Of a stretch of DNA of 64,000 nucleotides, positions 1 to 12,818 are shown piece after piece (position 1 is the stretch's first letter; every line of letters begins with the position of its first letter). This DNA is from Myxococcota bacterium (GTDB lineage: Bacteria; Myxococcota; XYA12-FULL-58-9; JABJBS01): contig JAYZAY010000078.1 of NCBI GenBank assembly GCA_036339465.1, positions 1-64,000 of the forward strand, read 5' to 3'. Made by a program: the position numbers and the translations under genes. The notes under the pieces are model-generated. The model searched no databases. It saw nothing but the letters and a program-made list of their open reading frames with translations, and had not been told where the DNA came from.

Positions 1-3000
1 CGACAAAACTTCGGACCATTCACACATTCATAACCGGTTTCGCAGCTATTCGAAGTACCGCAGGGTTTCATCTCGTAATAACTTTCGCCATCGGGAATGC
101 AATAACCTGATGTCTCATCATGGAAATCACACTTAAATCCCGCACCACAAACATCATCACTGCTACAGGGTTTCAAACAGTGGGAAGGTTCTTCAATACA
201 AGACTCGTTGTCATCACAAACACTGGCATTCTCTGTGCAATCCATGGAGCCATCACCGTGGGAGCCACCCCAACAATCCCAATCGCAATGGCAGTTTCCA
301 CCATCATCATTCACATCACACTTGTCCAAGTTGAGATCACAATCACAAGGGCAAGGCTTGTCAAATGGCACACATTCCTCCCCGCAGGGCCTCTCTCCCA
401 CCGGGCAAGCTGCATCGGTATTTTCCCCGGGAGCCGGAAAACAATAATCCCCGCCCCCGTCATATCCTGGCTCGCATCTTTCGTTAGGCCCACATTGGGA
501 AATATTCCCTGCCCCAAAATAGCATTCCTCACGACAAACACTCCGCCCGAGACATATTTCACCCGCACCGCAGCTGAATGAATCCTCAGGTCCACCACAT
601 GGCGTGAATTTTACTTGCGGTGGGTTTTCCGGATCCGGTTCAGCCACACACACACCAAACTCCACAGGGTTGGGGCGATCACAATGTGGCGTTTCAGAAT
701 CACTTCCACAATCATTATCGGAATAGCAGGTCCTCACACAAAAGTGGGGCTCCGGTACGCAATTCTCAAATTCACCACAGGCAAACTCGTCGTAGGTACA
801 ATCCGTGACTCCTACGTGAAAACCATCCTCATCCCCAAAATCGGTCGAACTATCAAAATCAGAACAACGGTCCTCTACCTCCCATTGCGGTAGCAAATCC
901 TCCCAACATGGGCAACCGGACACTCGTCCGAATTGATTCACGACGCTCAATTTAAATTCGTAAGCGCTGAATTTCCCATCGACGACGCACATATCCTGTG
1001 CTGCATAAAAATCCCGAAGGTTGGCATCATCTTCACACATTTCCGCGGGAATAATAGGGTCCTCGTCTTCACAGAACTTACCCACCACCTTCTGGAAATC
1101 TTCAAAGCCCATGATGGTCGTATCATCTACATCCTGTCCAAGATATTCCTTGAGCTTCTCTTTATAAGAGAGCCACGAGCTCTCACAGGTGCTCTTGCAG
1201 ATTTGGGCACAATCATCATCACAACCGCAATACCGGCCATCCTCGTCCTGGGTGCAGATATCAGCGTCACATTCACATGTTCCTGCTTCACTCGACAAAG
1301 GTCCGTCTTCGGGCTCGGTGGTGGGATCTTCGCATCCCTCGTCCACTTTGCCATCACAATCATTGTCGAGTTCATCGCAAGAGGTTTCATCAACTTCATA
1401 ACCCTGGATCCCCGAAAAATCCGGATCGACCCAAGCCCCGCCAGAACAAATGCGATACTGGCCACGACAAACCCCTTCTCGAAGACTGGCCGATGGTCCC
1501 TCACCCACAATGTCATCTTTCAGCCCATTACAATCATTGTCTAGACCATCGCAGCTACGCTCTTGCTTTTCATACAATTCAATATTGGCCTTATCAAAAA
1601 TCAATTCGCCATCAGAGGAACAAATCTGTGCCGCATTTTCACACACCCCATCAAGCCCCGCCACCGTGGGAGCTGTCAGGCCCTCGTCCACCTGGCCATC
1701 ACAATCATTGTCTCGACAATCAAAGGATGTCTCCGTTGTCTCTTCCGGTTCAAATAGAGATCCCTCATTGGGACATTGGTCGCCCGCTTCTAGGGCGTAG
1801 TTTGGCGGAATATTTTTTAGGGTACACACTTGAACCGGAGTCCCTGCTCCTTTCCCGTCCATGTCCACGTCGGGGTAGAGATCCCAAAACTTGAAGGCCG
1901 TCCGATCTGAGTCATCGCAATCATCCTGGTTGTCTGCCCAGCTGCGATTGCCTTGGCATAAACACTTTGTCGTGCTTGTTGCCGAAGAGTCCCCATAGCC
2001 GTCCCCGTCGTTGTCGGGATAATAATTGACACAATTGGTGGCATCCACCTCATCCACCCAACCATCACAATCGTTATCCGCACCGTCGCAAACTTCAGTC
2101 TCGGCAAGGATCTCATCTTCACCCTCCAGCACCTGCATTTGCCCCTCTTTGCAAACCATCACCCCCTTACGACATTCTCCTTTACCCAAAGTAGAAGCAT
2201 CGCCGGTATAGAAGAACTTCTGGATATCCTCGTCCACTTCACCATCACAATCGTTGTCGACACCATCACAAACCTCCACCGAAGCGTTGGTTTTGGTGCA
2301 TTGATATTCACAACCATCCTCCGCTCGATTATTCAAATCGAGAAACCCAAGAGCACAATCATAGGCACAACCAATCCCATTACTCATCAAGCGACAACTG
2401 GCAACCTGCCCCAAACCTGCCTCACATTTGACACCACAACCTCCACAATTGTTGACATCTTGGGTTCCTCCACCAGAGGCATCATCCACGATTCCATTAC
2501 AGTCGTTATCCACGTCATCACAGATTTCCGCCGACTTCTCTCCAGGCTGAGCCGTACAAATCGCCTTCGAGCCACTCCGGTTACACTCCACCTTACCCAC
2601 GCTCTCACAGGCACCCACCCCGGCATAACAATCTGCGGCTAGTGCATCGCCCTGAAAGGTGTAATCTTCGTCCACCACCCCATTGCAGTTATCATCCCTA
2701 TCGTTGCAACGCTCTAAAGCACCTGGATACACCAATGGGTTGGTGGGGTCACAGTCCTCTCCCTCTTGGACATTGTCAGGGTCTACGGGGTCAAAATAGC
2801 CGTCCCTGTCCGTGTCGCAGGTCGTGACATCGGCCCCGGAGCAGTCCTGGTCAATGCCGTCACCACACACTTCTTTGGCTCCTGGATAAATCCCTTTATC
2901 GGAATCATCACAGTCAATATCATCTGCATATCCGTCACCGTCCTCATCTTTGGTACTCACCACCTCAATAATTTGAACATTGATATACGCCGGCTCCGAC

Positions 3001-5690
3001 TCTTCTCCATTCTCGTCTTGAGCCACCACCTTGATGGCAATTCGCCCCTGCCCAAAAACCCTGAGCATCTTGTAGATTTTCGTATCATCACCTGAAGCAT
3101 CTGATAGAGTAGGATCATTAAGAATCGCCTTAAAGCTATCGTCGCTACCGGTCCCCAAGGAATAAGAACTGATAATTTCCCAGAACACCGAGACCGCATC
3201 ATCATCATAGTCGTCCACATAGGCCGTCATTTGTAGATTCACTGCGGTACCGGATAGTTCATTGATAATGGTTTTCGTTAGCGGCGTTACCTTTAGGCTA
3301 GGGGGAGTATTTACGGGGGGCTCAATCACCGAAATAACCATTTGGTTGATGTCCCCAAGGTCGGCTCCATCATCGGCATAGCAACCAATGACATAATCGC
3401 CGGCCTCCTCAAACTTAACGCGGGTCGAAATAGCATCAGAGTCATCAAAGACAGCGCCATAAGGCACCTGCCAGTAGTGCTTGACCTCGTCATCACTGTT
3501 ATCTTCGTCAGCAATACTCGCCTTAATACCCAAGTCATCACCCAAGTAAACTTCTGACTGCTCCACACTGATGCGACAAGTCGGTTTTGCATTGTTCGCC
3601 ACGGGCTCATCTACCACAAGGTCAAAAGACGTCACCGCCTCACCACTGGCATTACTCACCTTGGCTTCGACCTTAAATTGCCCCGAAGAGCCTCCACTTA
3701 CCATAGCCAACACCCCATTGGCTTCAAGGGTCACCGACGAATCGTTCGCAGTCCAGGTTACTGATTGGAGATCTCCGGTACTATCTTTGGCTTTAACAAT
3801 AAATTGCTGGGCACTTCCTCCCTTGAGCATTCGCCTGGTCATATTACCAACCCGCTCAATCACAGGCGGAGGATCACCCTCGGGCGTGCCATCAAAATCA
3901 TTGGCCACATTGTCACAATCTTTATCCGATGCATCCGTCTCTAGGTCGGCAGCAACAAACTGAACCTTGCCACTATCGAAAGCATCCCCTCCCTTAGGAG
4001 CTGCGTCATCGGTTTGGTCTGACACCAAATAAGCTGTGGCCTTTAAACCAATCTCACACGTTTTTGAAGTTCCTCCAGTCGTATCAAGGCAAGATTGCGA
4101 ACTCATCGCATCTCCGAAAATCCCCCGAACCGGTTCCAGCACCGATATGCTGGCTAAATCTGAACTATCTGCGGTTAACCCTTCGTTTTTGTAAATGGGC
4201 TGGCCCTCTAGGGTCGCGATAACTGCGTCGTATTTATCATTGACCTTCTTGACACTGAGAACAACACCATAGTCTCTCGAATCTCCAAAGCCCGCTTGAA
4301 CGACGAGTTTGAATTTGGTCCCGTCTTTAATGGCGCTAAACACTGTTTGGTTTCCGCTTTTACCCACCACTCGATTCAAGGGGAGAGAAAGCAAACTGTT
4401 TTTAGCCCGAACATCGAGAACCACACCACCATTACACTTCGCGCCACCTTTTCTCACTTCGAGATCAAAGAAATCTTCATCTTGTGTCACCGTTATCAAT
4501 GAAAAGTGACTGGTCTCTACCGAAGCCAAACCGGTTTTCGAATCAAAGCCAGTCAGCTCCAATTCCTCCCATGCCCCATTTTGACCCATGGTCCAAGCAC
4601 TTAAACTTCCTCCTGCCAAAACAGCTCCTTGGGCGGAGGAATCCACGGGAATTTGGACCTCCACGGGCTCAGAAAAAACCGTACCACTGGGACCAAAATC
4701 CACCACAATGGGAGTCTCATCACCAGCAGCAGGTAGAGACGGCGCTGTTTGGACTTCGCCAATTGAAATGGCAATACTGCCCCCTGCATCTGCCCCATGA
4801 ATATCAATGGCTTCGTCGTCGGTGTCACTCCCGTGGATATCAATGGCTTCGTCGTCGGTATCACTCCCATGGATATCGATACCGTGAATATCGATCTGTA
4901 AAGCCCCTCCGGGAATCACAACCCCCGCTCCGTTAATACTCGATAGGGGCGAATCAACGGTTACCGCAGCCGAAATCTCGGCGCTGATTTCAACCGCTTG
5001 TTCCACGGCTTTTTCCACTTGCGTCACCAAAACCGAAAACGACTGCACAACTTCTTGACCACCCAAAATAGCCGTCACCGCAAACTGATGTTCTTGTCCC
5101 GCATCTTCTGCCTTTGGAGTCCAGCTAATCACCCCATTCTCATTCACACACCCATCATTGGTCACGCAATCAGCGCCCCACTCTTGCCCAGAATCGTTCT
5201 CTGTGAGCTTGATCTCTGGGTTGCCTGGAATATTCACAATAGGACGATAGATCCAGGGTTCATCAACCGCTACAGCGAGATTCGCCACAGACTCAAACGT
5301 TAGAGTCTCTACAGGTAAACTTGAATCGGAGCCCGCCTCCGTATCGGTGGAGGTGTCGGTGGAGGTGTCGGTGGAGGTGTCGGTGGAGGTGTCGGTGGAG
5401 GTGTCGGTGGAGGTATCGCTATCAGTCGAAGTTCCAACATCCGTAGAAGTGTTGGTGTCTGTAGAAGTACCCGTATCTACCTCCGTCACCGTCTCTGAGG
5501 CTGTGGTCGTAGCGGTGCTCGTCGTACCGCCTGTGGACGTGCTCGTATCACTCCCAACAACCTCGCCTCCAGTATCCGTATTGGTGCCCCCTCCGGTATC
5601 CGCTCCCCCACATCCCGAAAGAACAAGAAAGAGAGAAAGAAGCGAGGAAAAAACAAAACGAGGACAAATTCTTAAGACAAGACTGTTCAT
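1..5690 (-). CDS. Giant Cys/Asp-rich surface lipoprotein, 3' end outside the window (>1896 aa)
   Basis: ATG at 5690-5688. The frame has no stop before the left edge, so the ORF track omits it; many + strand ORFs (120, 615, 933, 1563, 2139, 2766, 3342, 4296, 4998) are its antisense shadows. Signal peptide with lipobox LSGC, T/D/S linker, ZU5-like VDFGPSGTVFSEPVEVQIP, Ig/PKD-like stretches, many EVCDGVDNDCDGEVDE-type (MopE-like) repeats, and small Cys-rich modules. Confidence 0.9.
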   Translation of the reverse strand, partial: MNSLVLRICPRFVFSSLLSLFLVLSGCGGADTGGGTNTDTGGEVVGSDTSTSTGGTTSTATTTASETVTEVDTGTSTDTNTSTDVGTSTDSDTSTDTSTDTSTDTSTDTSTDTSTDTEAGSDSSLPVETLTFESVANLAVAVDEPWIYRPIVNIPGNPEIKLTENDSGQEWGADCVTNDGCVNENGVISWTPKAEDAGQEHQFAVTAILGGQEVVQSFSVLVTQVEKAVEQAVEISAEISAAVTVDSPLSSINGAGVVIPGGALQIDIHGIDIHGSDTDDEAIDIHGSDTDDEAIDIHGADAGGSIAISIGEVQTAPSLPAAGDETPIVVDFGPSGTVFSEPVEVQIPVDSSAQGAVLAGGSLSAWTMGQNGAWEELELTGFDSKTGLASVETSHFSLITVTQDEDFFDLEVRKGGAKCNGGVVLDVRAKNSLLSLPLNRVVGKSGNQTVFSAIKDGTKFKLVVQAGFGDSRDYGVVLSVKKVNDKYDAVIATLEGQPIYKNEGLTADSSDLASISVLEPVRGIFGDAMSSQSCLDTTGGTSKTCEIGLKATAYLVSDQTDDAAPKGGDAFDSGKVQFVAADLETDASDKDCDNVANDFDGTPEGDPPPVIERVGNMTRRMLKGGSAQQFIVKAKDSTGDLQSVTWTANDSSVTLEANGVLAMVSGGSSGQFKVEAKVSNASGEAVTSFDLVVDEPVANNAKPTCRISVEQSEVYLGDDLGIKASIADEDNSDDEVKHYWQVPYGAVFDDSDAISTRVKFEEAGDYVIGCYADDGADLGDINQMVISVIEPPVNTPPSLKVTPLTKTIINELSGTAVNLQMTAYVDDYDDDAVSVFWEIISSYSLGTGSDDSFKAILNDPTLSDASGDDTKIYKMLRVFGQGRIAIKVVAQDENGEESEPAYINVQIIEVVSTKDEDGDGYADDIDCDDSDKGIYPGAKEVCGDGIDQDCSGADVTTCDTDRDGYFDPVDPDNVQEGEDCDPTNPLVYPGALERCNDRDDNCNGVVDEDYTFQGDALAADCYAGVGACESVGKVECNRSGSKAICTAQPGEKSAEICDDVDNDCNGIVDDASGGGTQDVNNCGGCGVKCEAGLGQVASCRLMSNGIGCAYDCALGFLDLNNRAEDGCEYQCTKTNASVEVCDGVDNDCDGEVDEDIQKFFYTGDASTLGKGECRKGVMVCKEGQMQVLEGEDEILAETEVCDGADNDCDGWVDEVDATNCVNYYPDNDGDGYGDSSATSTTKCLCQGNRSWADNQDDCDDSDRTAFKFWDLYPDVDMDGKGAGTPVQVCTLKNIPPNYALEAGDQCPNEGSLFEPEETTETSFDCRDNDCDGQVDEGLTAPTVAGLDGVCENAAQICSSDGELIFDKANIELYEKQERSCDGLDNDCNGLKDDIVGEGPSASLREGVCRGQYRICSGGAWVDPDFSGIQGYEVDETSCDELDNDCDGKVDEGCEDPTTEPEDGPLSSEAGTCECDADICTQDEDGRYCGCDDDCAQICKSTCESSWLSYKEKLKEYLGQDVDDTTIMGFEDFQKVVGKFCEDEDPIIPAEMCEDDANLRDFYAAQDMCVVDGKFSAYEFKLSVVNQFGRVSGCPCWEDLLPQWEVEDRCSDFDSSTDFGDEDGFHVGVTDCTYDEFACGEFENCVPEPHFCVRTCYSDNDCGSDSETPHCDRPNPVEFGVCVAEPDPENPPQVKFTPCGGPEDSFSCGAGEICLGRSVCREECYFGAGNISQCGPNERCEPGYDGGGDYCFPAPGENTDAACPVGERPCGEECVPFDKPCPCDCDLNLDKCDVNDDGGNCHCDWDCWGGSHGDGSMDCTENASVCDDNESCIEEPSHCLKPCSSDDVCGAGFKCDFHDETSGYCIPDGESYYEMKPCGTSNSCETGYECVNGPKFC
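4794..4895 (-). repeat. In-frame repeat encoding IDIHG-IDIHG-SDTDDEA-IDIHG-SDTDDEA-IDIHG
   Basis: Near-identical 36-nt duplication plus extra IDIHG units, read directly from the sequence. Confidence 0.9.
5341..5412. repeat. 12-nt tandem repeat GTRTCGGTGGAG x6 (encodes a (STDT)n linker)
   Basis: Six consecutive copies visible. Confidence 0.95.
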
Positions 5691-6399: not shown

Positions 6400-6817
6400 A
6401 ACGGTCCTCCTTTCAATGTCAAATCAGATGGCTTCACCATCTACTTAGAATATCGTCCCTAGGGCCTCCATGTTGCTTCAAAAACAGGATTCATTTGCCC
6501 TATTCATTGAAGACATTTACACCGTTATTTCAGTAACATAGAGCACACCACGCAAAAAAACGACTCTTTGGTCTCTTAATGAAGCTCCGGTCCTCAACCT
6601 CCGATACTCCCTTTAAGGCCCTAGAGAAGCGCCGTAGATGAGAGTCGCCCGAAATACGCCTTTGTGGGTTAGGTTATTCAACCGATCCTCAAATCCCTCT
6701 AGAATCGGTCTTAAAAGGCGCCTGCGAGTGTGCAATGCCCATCTCCTCAAAAAATTGTTCATAAAGCCCAATATCCACTTGATCCATGGAGCTTTTAACA
6801 TCATCCTGTGGGAAAAG

Positions 6818-7825
6818 ATGTTTCGTTTATTACACCACACCCTCTTTGCTTTCGTTCTCGTAACCTTTGTTTCTGGATGCATCAACGCCCCACCTTTGCC
6901 CCCCCAGTCCCAGACGACCGAATCGTCTGGCAACGTTGATCTGCCCACAAACTCGGAAGAAGCGAGTGACAATCTAGCAACCCATTTTCCAAGCACCGAG
7001 GAAACAGAGGCAAACACCCACGCCACAGAAACCACAGACACAAATACCGACATCACAGAAACCGAGGCTGCAACTTCAGAAACAAATAGCGAGACCACAA
7101 CGCCGGATCCCACAGAAGATGACCCAGCAGAGAGTGAGAACGAACAACCAACAGAACCCAAGAGCAGCGACACTTCAGCCGAACAATCCCCCCCTCCCAC
7201 CGATTCCCCAGAAGAAGAAGAAGAAGAAGAACCCGTGGACACCCATCATCCAGAAGATGGTAGCGAGCAACCCACCCAACAAGCCACCTCCCCTGAAGAC
7301 GAAGAAGCGGTGGAATCCGAAAGTGACCCAACCCCCACCCCACTTGTGAGCTTAGCCTTAATCGACCGAAACACCAGTTCAGATACCTACGAGCAAGATG
7401 TGCAAGCCACCGATTTCCGTTCCAAAATCAGTGCTTGGTACTTCTTTAACGCCGGCTGAAGTTACTGCCGTAGCCAGTTTGGTTACTTGAATAAAATGCA
7501 AGATGAATTCAACAATGAAGGATTGGATATTCGGATTCTCGCGGTGGACTTACCCAATATGGATATCAGCTCTGGAATGCAGACAATCCATCAAAAGGGA
7601 AGCCTGCCTGCACTACAAGATACACCTGAAATTCATTTGGGGGGTGTTTGGAACACCACATTTCGGGATGTCGTCATCGTGGGAAAAAACGGGGAAAGAC
7701 TTCAAATTGAAATCGATGGCACGCTTAAGGACACACTGAATTTAACCCATCATTCCCTAGGACTAAACGAATATTACAATACCCTCAAAGATTTTCTATT
7801 GAATGCCCATGAACATGACGATTAA
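6818..7825 (+). CDS. Selenocysteine-containing thioredoxin-fold (redoxin/AhpC-TlpA-like) lipoprotein, UxxC motif, 335 aa
   Basis: ORFs 6638-7459 and 7487-7825 are in the same frame, separated only by TGA 7457-7459. Read-through gives AWYFFNAG-U-SYC-RSQFGYLNKMQ. Lipobox FVSGC (Cys21), acidic T/E/P linker, C-terminal RDVVIVGKNG strand. Confidence 0.88.
7460..7490 (+). promoter_or_regulatory. Putative bacterial SECIS element
   Basis: GTAGCCA-GTT-TGGTTAC (7470-7486) forms a 7-bp stem with one G-U pair. The loop begins with G after 17 intervening nt from the UGA, matching bacterial SECIS geometry. Confidence 0.75.
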
Positions 7826-7841
7826 CGAGTCACAACGGAGC

Positions 7842-8201
7842 TTATGATTCAAGTCGGTTGTATTTTTTTGCTGAACCATAACTCTTCCCAACTGGATATT
7901 TCTGTCCATTTTTTTCCATCTTCTTCTCGAGAGCTTCCCCCAGATCCACCTTCAACACATCGGCCAAGTGCAACAAAAAGGCAAAAACATCGGCCATCTC
8001 ATCTTTGACTGCCTCCCGATATTCGGATTTTTCAAGTTGATGCTGAATCTCATCATCCCCCAACCACAAAAACAGCTCTTGGAGCTCACTGGCCTCAATA
8101 TTGAGGGCAGTCGCCAAATTCCTTGGCGTATGAAATTGCTCCCAATTACGTTCATTTCTGAATTTCACCACGATGTTTCTCAAATCCTCTAGGGAATACA
8201 C
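7842..8201 (-). CDS. MazG-like nucleotide pyrophosphohydrolase (dCTP pyrophosphatase type)
   Basis: RNWEQFHTPRNLA..EASEL.E.F.W, DEMADV and KN..KYP motifs. Confidence 0.92.
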   Translation of the reverse strand: MYSLEDLRNIVVKFRNERNWEQFHTPRNLATALNIEASELQELFLWLGDDEIQHQLEKSEYREAVKDEMADVFAFLLHLADVLKVDLGEALEKKMEKNGQKYPVGKSYGSAKKYNRLES

Positions 8202-8449
8202 GGTTTACTCCATTTGCTGGTTCGGGAACTTCTCTCGAATCAGCATACCTAGGGTTATAACCTGACCAACCGAAAAAAACTCGGTCGGTACACCAAACAA
8301 CCTCTTCTTTCTCAACGTCTAGAAGCATCCCCCGGCCGTTGTTGGCCTGTGGATTTCCTTCAAACTCAAAAATAGGATTCATATCACAACAGGCCGCAAG
8401 CACCACTCCCAAACTCTCCACGGATATCCCCTTGCCCCTGCCCTCCACT

Positions 8450-8827
8450 CTAATCATCAACCATCAACGATAAGATGTGTTCGACCATCAGCGCCTGAAA
8501 ACTGCTGTGTCCGCCAATGGGCTCTAAAAGAGAAACAGAGAGCTGCGGGAACTGGTCCAAAAAATGGCGAACAATTCTTGGCACATCATCTCGAAGGTGC
8601 CTTCCCGCTGAGAAGAAAAGGGGCAAGATTGAGATGGAGCGCACCCCTTCTTGGTACAATCCCGCAACCACAGAAGACAAGTCAGGTTCGCAATGTTCAA
8701 GATATGCCAGGCGACAGCACATTTCGGAATTCAAAGCGCCGAGTCGCTCCATTAAGGCATCAAATGGTCGACGCCAATGTTCGTCTCTACTTCCATGGGC
8801 CAAAAGTATCATTGCGGACTCAGTCAT
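8450..8827 (-). CDS. cbiX: Sirohydrochlorin chelatase, short CbiX/SirB type
   Basis: LLAHGSRD, AYLEHCEP and PLFFSAGRHLRDDVP motifs. Confidence 0.88.
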   Translation of the reverse strand: MTESAMILLAHGSRDEHWRRPFDALMERLGALNSEMCCRLAYLEHCEPDLSSVVAGLYQEGVRSISILPLFFSAGRHLRDDVPRIVRHFLDQFPQLSVSLLEPIGGHSSFQALMVEHILSLMVDD

Positions 8828-9266
8828 GTCGATATGCCTCCTTGATCAACACTTAGCCCCTCAGCATGAGGCCCTGCCTGCGCCCATCTTTTCGAAGTAT
8901 TGAGCGACAACAGTGGAGAGATGGTCTGGGATATGGCTCGTAGCAATTTGAGCCCGAAGGGTAAACCCATGGTCGTTCATTTGTTTGAAACATGGATTAC
9001 TGGAAACTCGTTCACATTCTTGAACGCTGTATCGATTTAATCAAATTGAAGAAGCAATGTCCTTACGAATGATTCATTATGCAACGGACAAATCCGAAGC
9101 AACATAATGTCGTTGCCCGTCAGAAGACTCACCAATAGCGCCTTAATCCTCGCACCTACTAAAACCTTACATTACAGCAGTTCGGACTGATTTAATTCTC
9201 TTCTAAAAGTTCAGGTGAATGGCCAAAGCCAAAGCCCAAGACACAACACCCAAACCAGCAAGGCTC

Positions 9267-9878
9267 TCATTTTGTCACCAAGTCATCTGGGCAGAGATAC
9301 GTTCCCTCCTCCACGAACGCACCTGGCTCAATTTCCACCCCAGGCGCCATCACCGTTGCGCCCCCGACAAACGCACCTTCACCAATCTTTATTTTTTTAA
9401 TTACCAGTTTGAGAATATCTTCTCTGCTGGGGGAAATAAGGTGACAGGATGCTTTAACGCCATGTTCAAAAACCGCATTGTTGCCAACGTCCATAAAAGC
9501 ACGGTCTTCCAATTCAAAATGTGGTGTCCAAGAAACGTCTCGGCCAATGGAGCTTCCCCAGAGACGAAGCCACACACTAAACAAGCCTGGAACCAAACGT
9601 ATGACCCTTTCTAACGCGGGAAAATAGACAAAGAGGCTTTGAATCATATGCCCCCCATACCAGGGAGAATACTCACCAATGATACTGCTGGTTCCCTCTT
9701 CTATGGGGAAAAATCTATTGTGAATTTTGTACGCAATAACCGGAAACGCGTAGATCCAAAAGAGAAGCCACAAGAGTGAACCAAGCCCGGGCAAACGACA
9801 CAACGTCAGCGCCGAATCAAACACCAAAAGAAAATGTAACAACGGAAAAAATGTAATTAATTTGCCTGCTATCGTCAT
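9267..9878 (-). CDS. Membrane-anchored hexapeptide-repeat acyltransferase-like protein
   Basis: N-terminal TM segments, YSPWYGGH, WLRLWGSSIG and a left-handed beta-helix C-terminus (KIGEGAFVGGATVMAPGVEIEPGA). Alternative GTG start at 9890. Confidence 0.8.
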   Translation of the reverse strand: MTIAGKLITFFPLLHFLLVFDSALTLCRLPGLGSLLWLLFWIYAFPVIAYKIHNRFFPIEEGTSSIIGEYSPWYGGHMIQSLFVYFPALERVIRLVPGLFSVWLRLWGSSIGRDVSWTPHFELEDRAFMDVGNNAVFEHGVKASCHLISPSREDILKLVIKKIKIGEGAFVGGATVMAPGVEIEPGAFVEEGTYLCPDDLVTK

Positions 9879-9919
9879 TCTAATGGCCACACCAATTCAT
9901 GAACTAAACTTAGTTCGGT

Positions 9920-10330
9920 TTAAACCCCGAGCTCCTGAGAAGCCTGGTCTTTATCATACCACGTACCATGACTCTTATCCCATAGATTAGAATTTGCACC
10001 AAAACTCACGTCGTAAACATCCTGCGAATGATGCCTGCAATGGCCATTGGGAAGTATCAGAAAGTATCCCAACACTTTCTTCAGCCATCGGCTTCTAAAC
10101 CCGAATGCCTCCACAAATCCAATACCGATGAAAAAATCAGACCAATAAGCTATGGAAGTAGAATCTCGTGCCCGGAGGGATTCAGAAAATCACTGATAAA
10201 TCCGATATTTGTATCTTCGTTTTTGTAGCGCGTTTTAAATAAACCATTTCCCCTCTCGATTTCAGCATCAATTTTTAGACTTTAACTCTCTACTTTCGGC
10301 AACCACAGCCCAAAAATCTTTGACATCCAT
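9920..10330 (-). pseudogene. Sterol desaturase/fatty acid hydroxylase family remnant
   Basis: LDLWRHSG in one frame, then LILPNGHCRHHS..FGANSNLWDKSHGTWY in another (HxxHH box and WD..GT end). Stops and frameshifts upstream. Confidence 0.75.
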
Positions 10331-10333
10331 CAC

Positions 10334-10621
10334 TCACTCTATGGGTTTCAATGAAATATCATTGCTCAAAAAAATCTGACAAGCCAATCTCGCCTTAGGA
10401 TTTCCCGGTGCATGGGCCTCTAGGGTTTCCTGCTCATCTTCATCGGGCGGGGCCAGCCCTCCTACCACCTCACAAATACAGGTTCCACAAATCCCGGAAC
10501 GACAACCAAACAGAACCGGTGAATTGAACTCCGTTAATTCTTCCGAAAGGGACTGTCCCTCACTGGCGTAAAAAGAATCATACCCTGAGTCTGGAAAGGA
10601 AACTTTATATCTTTTACCCAT
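10334..10621 (-). CDS. 2Fe-2S ferredoxin
   Basis: FGCRSGICGTC...RLACQ motif. Confidence 0.93.
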   Translation of the reverse strand: MGKRYKVSFPDSGYDSFYASEGQSLSEELTEFNSPVLFGCRSGICGTCICEVVGGLAPPDEDEQETLEAHAPGNPKARLACQIFLSNDISLKPIE

Positions 10622-10624
10622 CAA

Positions 10625-11290
10625 TTACACTCCAGAAAAACGACGTAATGTGCCCCGATTCTGCTTCAAATTGCCCTCAAAAGTCGTCTCGGGCATCATG
10701 TGAAGGGTCTTATCCTTCGATAAAACGCGGCTAAGCGGTTCCAGGGATTTCTCGTTAGAATCTGCCGCAACGGTTAAGGTATCAAAGGTACTTCGATTGG
10801 CTGCATTTTCTTCAGGAAAATACTTGTTCATCATTTGTGAGGCTTCATCATGCTCCATATTGAAGAGTTTGCTGCGAATTACCTTGTACACCGCCTTAAA
10901 TGTTGCGGGCTCATACCAAAATACGCCATTCACGGCACCGAAGAAATTGCACTGTTCTTTTTGGCAGGCATCGTTTCCCAAATTGCCTACCATTTTGTTA
11001 ATCACTGTGGATTCAGGCAAACAATGAATCAAATAGTGACCCGAAACATATGAGCTATTGAAGTAATATAATTGTTCCATAAAGTGACCGTAGCTTATTA
11101 GAGAAAGAACAGGCAATGAATATTAGACTTCACTTTTGTGATAAAAATGGTTCAATTGTTGCTGAACCATTCTCTGAACCATTCTCCCATTCGGGATTCG
11201 CAGGCCCCGCACTGTAAAATATACTCGAGAACGAGCATATAGAAAATATAGAAAAAGCCTTCGAAAGCGGAGAAGCTCTTCGCTGCATCA
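10625..11290 (-). pseudogene. CylC-like dimetal-carboxylate halogenase remnant (C-terminal half)
   Basis: One frame reads YFTVRGLRIPNG(RMVQ)2QQLNHFY..*..ISYGHFMEQLYYFNSS..NGVFWYEPA..VYKVIRS. TAA at 11125-11123; 12-nt duplication at 11163-11186. Resembles the recalled CylC-family consensus. Confidence 0.65.
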
Positions 11291-11329
11291 TCGAGCAATG
11301 AGGTGTGGTGCTATTATATTTTTCGTCGA

Positions 11330-11982
11330 TGACCGCTCGCCATCTTCTTGGATATCTTGATAACCTCTCACAAGTGGGTCCGAGGAAGAGAAAGAGAGTA
11401 AGTTATAAAAGATTGTCCGGCCCATAGAGACACCTGTAGACCTTCTCCTCCAAGTCACTCAGAATATATTTTTATCCAGCCAGTCCCATCAGGTCTTTGA
11501 GGATGTTTAGTTTATTGGGTGGCTCATCATGCCCATTGAGATCATGGTAAGTTTTGATCTTTTGATTGCGGTCAATCCCTCCTGTTGATCTCATTTCGAC
11601 TTACCTTGGGGACAAGTCGGTTCGATATCGAGAAATTTTTCATGGGGTCAGTCCTATATTTGCGGCTATTGGAGTCCATTTTTCGAGTTCGACAAAACAC
11701 TCATTTTTGCAGCGAACGCCATGCCACATTGTTCGATGAAAAGGGCTTCTTCGATTTAAGACCCGCCACAACTTGAGACTATCGCAGTTTGGTATTCCTC
11801 CGAGGGCTCGTTAAAAACGCCTTGCCGCTTCAAATCAAAATAATCGGAGGTCTTCAGGTTCCAAACCGCGGGTCCGCATCAGCCACGCATTTCTTTAGGG
11901 CCACCTTAGAATCACATTCGATCGGTGGTCTTTTTTCGAACCTAGCCATCGGTAAGTTTGGGTCAATCTTTAGAGTCTTCAT
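11330..11982 (-). pseudogene. Ferritin-like (diiron) protein remnant
   Basis: ATG overlaps the SDR stop. After a frameshift: DYFDLKRQGVF..*IEEALFIEQCGMAFAAKM, like the EEAYFIEKAG..AKM motif of ferritin-like proteins. Many stops; 3' boundary approximate. Confidence 0.55.
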
Positions 11983-12818
11983 GATGTCTGACCCCCAATG
12001 ATTTTCCTAAAGAATTTACCGAGGATCCACATTCTCGGATTTTCAGGAACCCATTTAATCAGCCATCCCGAAACCACCGAATCCGCACCAACTCTATGTC
12101 TAATGGCAAAAGGTCGGTCTTCTGCCAATTTCAGTACTAAATTGGTCACTTCCTGCGGCGGTCGCCCCTTGCCCGCACTCAATCTATTGCGGAGTGCCTG
12201 ATAGCCACTGAGCTGTGTTAGATACTCGGGCGCTTGACGAGCACCCCATTGAATATTGTTACCAAAGTCCGTTCGATAACCACCTGGTTCTACAGCATAA
12301 ACTTTAACTCCGTGGGGACTAAGCTCGTGGTAAAGTGCCTCGGAAAACGACGTTAGCGCTGCCTTACTTGCACAATAAGCCGACGACAGAGGAAAACCCA
12401 CAAATGACATCACCGATGAAATGTTAATAACAGCTCCCTTGCCCCTGCGAAGGGCAGGCAAAAGCCGGCGAGTTAACATCATGGGTGCGGTAATATTCGT
12501 TAAGATCTGCTTATTTACTTGTTCGTCACTCAAAGTTTCTAAGGGGCCAAAAAGTGCATACCCCGCATTATTGATCAAAATGTCGAGGGATCCGGCCGCG
12601 AATATCTGAGCAACTCTATCCTGTGCAGCCGGTTCACAAACATCCAATTCCAAAAGTTTCAATTGGGTTGGATACAATTTTGCCGCATCCTCGAAGAGGT
12701 TTTTCCTCTCCTCTAGACGCCTCATGGTGGCATAAACCAACCACCCTTTCGCGAGAAATTCATCCACCAAAACTCGCCCAATACCTGTGGCGCTTCCGGT
12801 GATTAAGATGGAGTTCAT
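11979..12818 (-). CDS. Short-chain dehydrogenase/reductase
   Basis: TGSATGIG, NNAGY, YCASK and VEPGGYRT motifs; intact. Confidence 0.93.
   Translation of the reverse strand: MNSILITGSATGIGRVLVDEFLAKGWLVYATMRRLEERKNLFEDAAKLYPTQLKLLELDVCEPAAQDRVAQIFAAGSLDILINNAGYALFGPLETLSDEQVNKQILTNITAPMMLTRRLLPALRRGKGAVINISSVMSFVGFPLSSAYCASKAALTSFSEALYHELSPHGVKVYAVEPGGYRTDFGNNIQWGARQAPEYLTQLSGYQALRNRLSAGKGRPPQEVTNLVLKLAEDRPFAIRHRVGADSVVSGWLIKWVPENPRMWILGKFFRKIIGGQTS

Follow-up and report, generated by a model that had tools for sequence, protein, structure and literature searches.

The question raised by this locus is whether two small open reading frames that public annotation treats as separate hypothetical proteins belong to a single selenoprotein gene and, if so, what redox chemistry such a protein may carry out at the cell envelope of its myxococcotal host. 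A first-pass annotation of the window (the whole stretch of 64,000 nucleotides that was analyzed) had read the two frames as one exported redoxin interrupted by a TGA at the first position of a UxxC motif. We find that the two frames are indeed one, split by a single in-frame TGA at codon 214 in the context AWYFFNAG-U-SYC, followed by RSQFGYL (Table 1). As had been anticipated, standard annotation divides the gene, the public calls being proteins of 213 and 109 residues, each 100% identical. An in-frame ATG is also present upstream at 6638; the start at 6818 is favored, as both the signal peptide and the 213-residue NCBI gene call begin there. No promoter or terminator match was obtained at the gene.

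Table 1. Features of the putative selenoprotein gene, in positions of the window
Feature	Positions	Strand	Evidence
Whole gene, 335 codons including one TGA	6818..7825	+	ATG 6818, TAA 7823-7825, translated frame
Lipoprotein signal peptide (predicted) ending in lipobox V-S-G-C, with Cys21 at 6878-6880	6818..6880	+	Sequence pattern
Acidic E/T/P/S/D stalk of 154 residues, likely disordered	6881..7342	+	Composition
Thioredoxin-fold redoxin domain, NF053656	7343..7822	+	131.1 bits; model pLDDT 95.3
TGA at the start of UxxC, likely selenocysteine 214	7457..7459	+	TGA or Cys in relatives
Cys217, likely resolving cysteine	7466..7468	+	Invariant, 57/57 rows of alignment A2
Bacterial SECIS hairpin, 7-bp stem, GUU loop	7470..7486	+	Fold, covariation, relatives
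Arg283 at the thioredoxin cis-Pro position	7664..7666	+	Alignment with ResA; Arg in 54/57 rows

It is conceivable that the TGA is a real stop, be it in a pseudogene, between two genes or through a sequencing error, or that it is read as tryptophan. We regard this as very improbable. In its favor, no RNA run is among the sequencing runs that contain the gene, all being marine or unlabelled DNA. With regard to a sequencing error, the codon has no other letters in two contigs of the organism, one of them from another study. The first spans the whole stretch without other letters and may derive from the source sample itself (four runs were compared), and the second covers 7239-7471 without differences, ending 12 letters past the TGA codon. 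The match of this contig from another study through codon 214 argues against such a reading; in the other two of the four runs, codon 214 is not covered by any contig of the organism. Separately, a contig of another organism (run X2, record 3) matches only the hairpin region, window 7463-7503, and its loose end reads as another family member with a TGA at the same site.

The host genome (92.8% complete) was expected, if the TGA were recoded, to carry selA, selB, selC and selD, and all four are present above their cut-offs, with scores of 439.9, 301.5, 70.6 (selC, tRNA-Sec) and 300.5 bits, respectively. The selD gene (G000:C85:34722-35633, + strand) carries one in-frame TGA of its own, and therefore likely encodes a selenoprotein too. 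Global recoding of TGA in this host was considered and rejected: TGA terminates 285 of 1122 long open reading frames and RF2 is present, therefore the codon keeps its ordinary meaning elsewhere, which also weighs against reading codon 214 as tryptophan. When the host genome was scanned for UxxC and CxxU motifs, 16 candidates were returned, and only the gene at 6818-7825 looked real. Across the phylum, selA was detected in 32 of 35 other genomes carrying the family or its KDD sister clade (see below). Among 34 other genomes with the TGA form, two (86% and 96% complete) had no selA match, which counts against recoding. This co-occurrence test is weak because selA is common in the phylum (291/401 genomes, a tally that includes one genome flagged as unpublished).

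The hairpin that the first-pass annotation had placed directly downstream, GTAGCCA-GTT-TGGTTAC, was recovered; the loop (7477-7479), which is 17 nt downstream of the UGA, has G as its first letter. The bSECIS model, as given in the relevant part of a recent review (PMC13188914), asks for a loop of 3-9 nt, a stem of 4-16 bp, an energy of -7.5 or lower, a G in the first two loop positions and a distance of 16-37 nt from the UGA. The present hairpin has a loop of 3 nt, a stem of 7 bp and the G in first position within that distance, and a borderline energy (-7.5 in context; -6.1 for the bare 17-mer). Taken alone, this energy is unremarkable, which favors a stop or tryptophan: the hairpin folds no better than chance (z = -0.59, with 52 of 200 shuffles folding as well), and a loosely SECIS-like hairpin follows 1237 of 7237 TGAs sampled in the host genome.

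The relatives speak more clearly. Over 33 TGA loci (32 of them distinct), 97.8% of the cells are paired and five of the seven pairs show two-sided changes; none of 500 shuffles reached the observed value, in a test that kinship inflates, and slid registers gave 33-59%. In a separate metagenome set, six or seven pairs are kept in 100 of 114 distinct TGA loci among the matches listed. In all 114 of these listed loci the loop G is fixed within a Gln CAG codon (CAG 519/667 elsewhere in the same genes), and in the same listed genes Phe at the hairpin is TTT in 72 of 110 cases versus 70 of 328 elsewhere. The two TGA-coded genes of the sister clade both keep 7/7 pairs, and eight Cys-coded genes retain 6, 5, 4, 3, 3, 1, 1 and 1 of the seven. 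Covariation, codon bias and the loss of pairs in Cys-coded genes together point to selection on RNA structure, and on these comparative grounds the conservation of the hairpin is the best evidence for recoding at this locus. That the TGA is conserved among relatives together with a covarying hairpin is not what would be expected of a stop or a tryptophan codon.

The read-through protein matches the NCBIfam model NF053656 with 128.3 bits over its full length and 131.1 bits for the domain, against a curated cut-off of 100, and with 121.9 bits on the genome with the stop in place. The model, NF053656.1 (redoxin_TUGYCR), is described as a "TUGYCR motif thioredoxin fold (seleno)protein". The alignment covers 143 of 146 model positions and runs across the TGA; this match and the covariation of the hairpin are far beyond chance. 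The TUGYCR-like motif is present as G-U-S-Y-C-R, in which G (9/57) and S (16/57) are common variants in the rows of alignment A2 (57 rows, including one sister-clade protein). Selenocysteine would occupy the same site as in NF053656. The window protein is nevertheless a divergent, low-scoring member (131 bits versus about 147-210 for others), with ten residues inserted close to its C-terminal end, Asp244 in place of a conserved Asn of the family, and a stalk of 154 residues in contrast to a median of 17 in relatives.

It had been suggested that homologues should have TGA or Cys at the position of codon 214, and these predominate in the phylum, in metagenomes and in the protein library. In the phylum, 34 of 401 genomes have an NF053656 match above cut-off, and 35 of the 36 such matches contain one TGA. 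A metagenome pattern allowing TGA, TGC or TGT found TGA in 119 of 120 loci among the matches listed, the pattern being derived from Sec-type relatives and hence favoring them, with one locus as the Cys control. Of 101 library proteins, 79 carry Cys there, 3 Trp and 4 another residue (D, S, A or T), and the remaining 15 do not align at the site. The three Trp proteins would favor a tryptophan codon, yet two of them may be explained by a gene caller using another code: two cluster mates of the first terminate exactly before the Trp, therefore its caller seems to have read TGA under another code, and one cluster mate of the second is its C-terminal half; the third is a singleton. A search for related loci in genomes gave one distant locus, and the viral contigs searched gave no match.

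Two further observations concern the family at large. One genome (G115; contigs C67, C10 and C19) holds three family copies, two of them TGA-coded and one without a stop. A protein of 612 residues (P0004) contains tandem copies of the domain (five matched stretches), and these have Asp or Gln at the first position of the motif; the repeats are likely non-catalytic or one-Cys.

Taken together, the gene is a member of the TUGYCR family, probably the "Prx-like 2" family of the literature discussed below, with its TGA very likely recoded as selenocysteine. We strongly infer selenocysteine insertion at codon 214. In the mechanism that we almost certainly expect to apply, SelB would bind the G-loop hairpin and selenocysteine would be inserted at codon 214.

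The novelty implied by the first-pass annotation was not borne out, in that NF053656 is curated as a selenoprotein family and the family has very probably been in print since 2008. The possibility of a novel family was rejected on the NF053656 match above cut-off and on probable members in the 2008 data set (PMC2398784). According to the sections of that paper that deal with it, the marine family "Prx-like 2" has a UxxC motif, 99 Sec sequences in GOS and 100 Cys homologues, and low similarity to pfam04592/Selenoprotein P was noted (Zhang & Gladyshev, 2008; PMC2398784). The "Prx-like 2" entries of its Dataset S1 include a sequence with WYF....USYC..QFGYL and YRDVV, another with UGYCR, and one KDD-type member with U, so that "Prx-like 2" is broader than TUGYCR. 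Compared by eye, the window protein matches the motifs WYF, USYC, QFGYL and YRDVV; most of the members listed there differ from it in having short signals and C-terminal extensions instead of an anchor and a long stalk. The word TUGYCR was not found in a literature search, a term search of PMC12013277 gave no match, and NF053656 is not among the entries of Table 1 in the review from 2026 (PMC13188914) and was not found by name in the parts consulted of the BSepDB text and supplement. The window gene therefore adds one ordinary member to a curated and, in all likelihood, already published selenoprotein family.

The structure predicted from the 57-row alignment (pLDDT 95.3) has a DsbE/ResA/TlpA-like fold. 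Its best matches are DsbE, Etrx and ResA (Z 16.6, 16.2 and 15.8), aligning about 130 residues at an rmsd of about 2 (132 residues and rmsd 2.0 for the best, Z 16.6), and Bcp/Prx (Z up to 14.5) and glutathione peroxidases rank lower. With TlpA, ResA, DsbE and Etrx the protein shares the fold, the N-terminal hairpin with a helix-strand insertion, the membrane anchor and the two-residue spacing of the motif; it differs in having Sec for the first Cys and Arg for the cis-Pro, at 13-22% identity, and the TlpA and ResA profile models score far below cut-off. The substitution of the TlpA cis-Pro by a peroxiredoxin-like Arg had been noticed on first reading and holds: Arg283 aligns with the Pro of ResA LPTT, in a weak phmmer alignment. 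In alignment A2, 54 of the 57 rows carry Arg at this position, placed by sequence alignment only, and none carries Pro; the Arg is a family-wide trait. With the peroxiredoxins Bcp and AhpC the protein has in common this Arg and the extended fold; however, their PxxxT/SxxC motif with the peroxidatic residue last is absent, the sequence being FFNAG-U-SY-C. With glutathione peroxidases it shares the fold and Sec at the first motif position, yet it has no UxxT, and the GSHPx model matches 1 of 57 family members.

We tentatively suggest, at a little short of even chances, that this putatively exported Sec enzyme has peroxides or comparable small oxidants as its substrates in the cell envelope. The reading follows from the Arg at the cis-Pro position and from precedents described in the relevant portion of PMC2757866, where peroxiredoxins have Arg at that position, polypeptide substrates are likely bound by the cis-Pro, and the catalytic residue of glutathione peroxidases is the first of the motif. 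In such a scheme, whose parts we hold jointly with slightly less than even confidence, the selenolate of Sec214 would attack a hydroperoxide and Cys217 would resolve it to a selenenylsulfide, while Arg283 would replace the peptide-binding cis-Pro as in peroxiredoxins. As a guess, the reductant would be the DsbD-type protein of the genome or a small thiol. Several points count against the peroxidase reading. The Arg of peroxiredoxins assists the second motif Cys, whereas here the Sec is first; the solved structures closest in fold, DsbE, ResA and Etrx (Z 15-16.6), are disulfide reductases; and we know of no reductant if the domain sits on the outer surface. The literature search found no biochemical data or assay of any family member.

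These same structural matches, together with the dithiol-type UxxC with its invariant second Cys, the predicted membrane anchor and the one DsbD_TM gene of the genome (73 bits), favor a different role for the selenoprotein, namely that of a DsbD-fed protein disulfide reductase or isomerase of the TlpA/ResA/Etrx type that keeps envelope proteins reduced. We consider this rather unlikely, in view of the lack of a cis-Pro in 57 of 57 rows, of the TlpA and ResA model scores, and of flanks that were scanned without finding a cytochrome c maturation or Msr gene. Still less probable, in our judgment, is a selenoprotein whose substrates are metals or small inorganic compounds such as polysulfide, sulfane sulfur, selenite, or Cu/Hg. 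It draws on the view, cited in the part consulted of PMC2757866, that a cis-Pro may keep CxxC from binding metals, the residue being absent here, and on a rhodanese gene that adjoins four of six sister-clade loci scanned. Yet the rhodanese link comes from sister-clade loci, whose genomes belong to a single family, and no rhodanese was seen in the flanks of 17 main-family loci scanned. In 90 of 116 flanking open reading frames scanned around 23 loci, no neighbor is common to the main family, and we count this lack of a conserved partner gene in favor of the peroxidase reading.

In the window itself, the neighbors are a divergent giant MopE-repeat lipoprotein gene and convergent MazG-like and CbiX genes. 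The giant lipoprotein (1-5687, - strand; at least 1895 residues, running off the contig start) has four MopE-type repeats and a D/T/E/S stalk similar to that of the selenoprotein. On the other side, 7842-12818 (- strand) encodes MazG-like, CbiX, hexapeptide transferase, 2Fe-2S ferredoxin and short-chain dehydrogenase proteins, all ordinary.

The lipobox with Cys21 proposed in the first-pass annotation is supported by a hydrophobic signal ending in V-S-G-C, and the T/E/P/S linker, put at about 155 residues, counts 154 (E31, T28, P22, S18, D13). Lipid anchoring and export are predicted from sequence pattern; very probably, Cys21 would be lipidated once the signal has been removed, with the acidic stalk keeping the domain off the membrane. 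The stalk was at one point regarded as a special feature, and this was rejected, long stalks being a genome-wide habit that is also seen in relatives. Of 147 pattern-called host lipoproteins, 21 have a stalk of at least 50 residues and 5 one of at least 100, that of the window protein being the longest. A crude signal pattern assigned a lipobox to 65 of 107 relatives, a planctomycete-type signal to 11, a cut sequence to 15 and other to 16. In the 65 lipobox relatives, the linker has a median of 17 residues and reaches at least 127 in six. Several of 33 longer homologues scanned carry dockerin, Ig, cadherin or Calx-beta fusions. The lipobox in relatives and the adhesin-type fusions indicate that the family domain is usually exported; the family is widespread and, in the clade sampled, nearly always Sec-coded.

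The relation of this family to animal Selenoprotein P goes through the KDD sister clade, which is homologous to the TUGYCR family over 157 columns (probability 99.9) and forms a separate branch in the tree (100/97, bootstrap not settled). KDD proteins match PF04592 in 12 of 12 cases and members of A2, which includes one sister-clade protein, in 2 of 57 rows; the window protein has no match to PF04592 (cut-off 23.2 bits) at E <= 1. A special kinship of the window protein with Selenoprotein P was not shown, the sister clade being a separate branch, and a weak PF04592 match with a TGA on contig C11 was dismissed as noise. With the Selenoprotein P N-domain the window protein shares a secreted UxxC thioredoxin fold; it differs in the missing PF04592 match and in having no Sec-rich tail. 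By structure, a chordate Selenoprotein P cluster ranks eighth for a sister-clade protein (TM 0.79), level with TlpA clusters (0.75-0.79), and no protein named as eukaryotic was among the results of word-seeded sequence searches.

The host genome also has a Cys-coded KDD lipoprotein (L028; G000:C40:33007-33687, - strand), for which SelP_N is the best Pfam match (41.2 bits) and no NCBIfam model exceeds its cut-off; a rhodanese gene adjoins it. It keeps 6/7 hairpin pairs and the loop G, and this hairpin is possibly a relic SECIS left after a Sec-to-Cys change. Two TGA-coded KDD members (L035:1330-1941, + strand, in G005, and L229 in G319) have 7/7 pairs and lie outside the NF053656 cut-off.

The N-domain of Selenoprotein P was tied to TlpA/ResA by fold recognition, according to the pertinent part of that study (Lobanov, 2008; PMC2397514). 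One may conjecture that, among living prokaryotes, it is the TUGYCR and KDD proteins that are most closely related to the SELENOP catalytic domain, that is, secreted UxxC peroxidases without a cis-Pro, displayed at the surface on stalks or adhesin domains, although we hold this to be unlikely on balance. N-terminal fragments of Selenoprotein P reportedly have peroxidase activity, going by the title of a cited paper.

For the field, the gene itself adds little, the family being curated and very probably published in 2008; in this genome, two proteins annotated as hypothetical become one selenoprotein, and the family to which it belongs joins a thioredoxin-type motif to a peroxiredoxin-type Arg. 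If the conjectured kinship were true, the window gene would give a marine bacterium a selenium peroxidase displayed on its surface, with a mode of action like that of the SELENOP N-domain, and the family would point to the origin of the SELENOP N-terminal domain.
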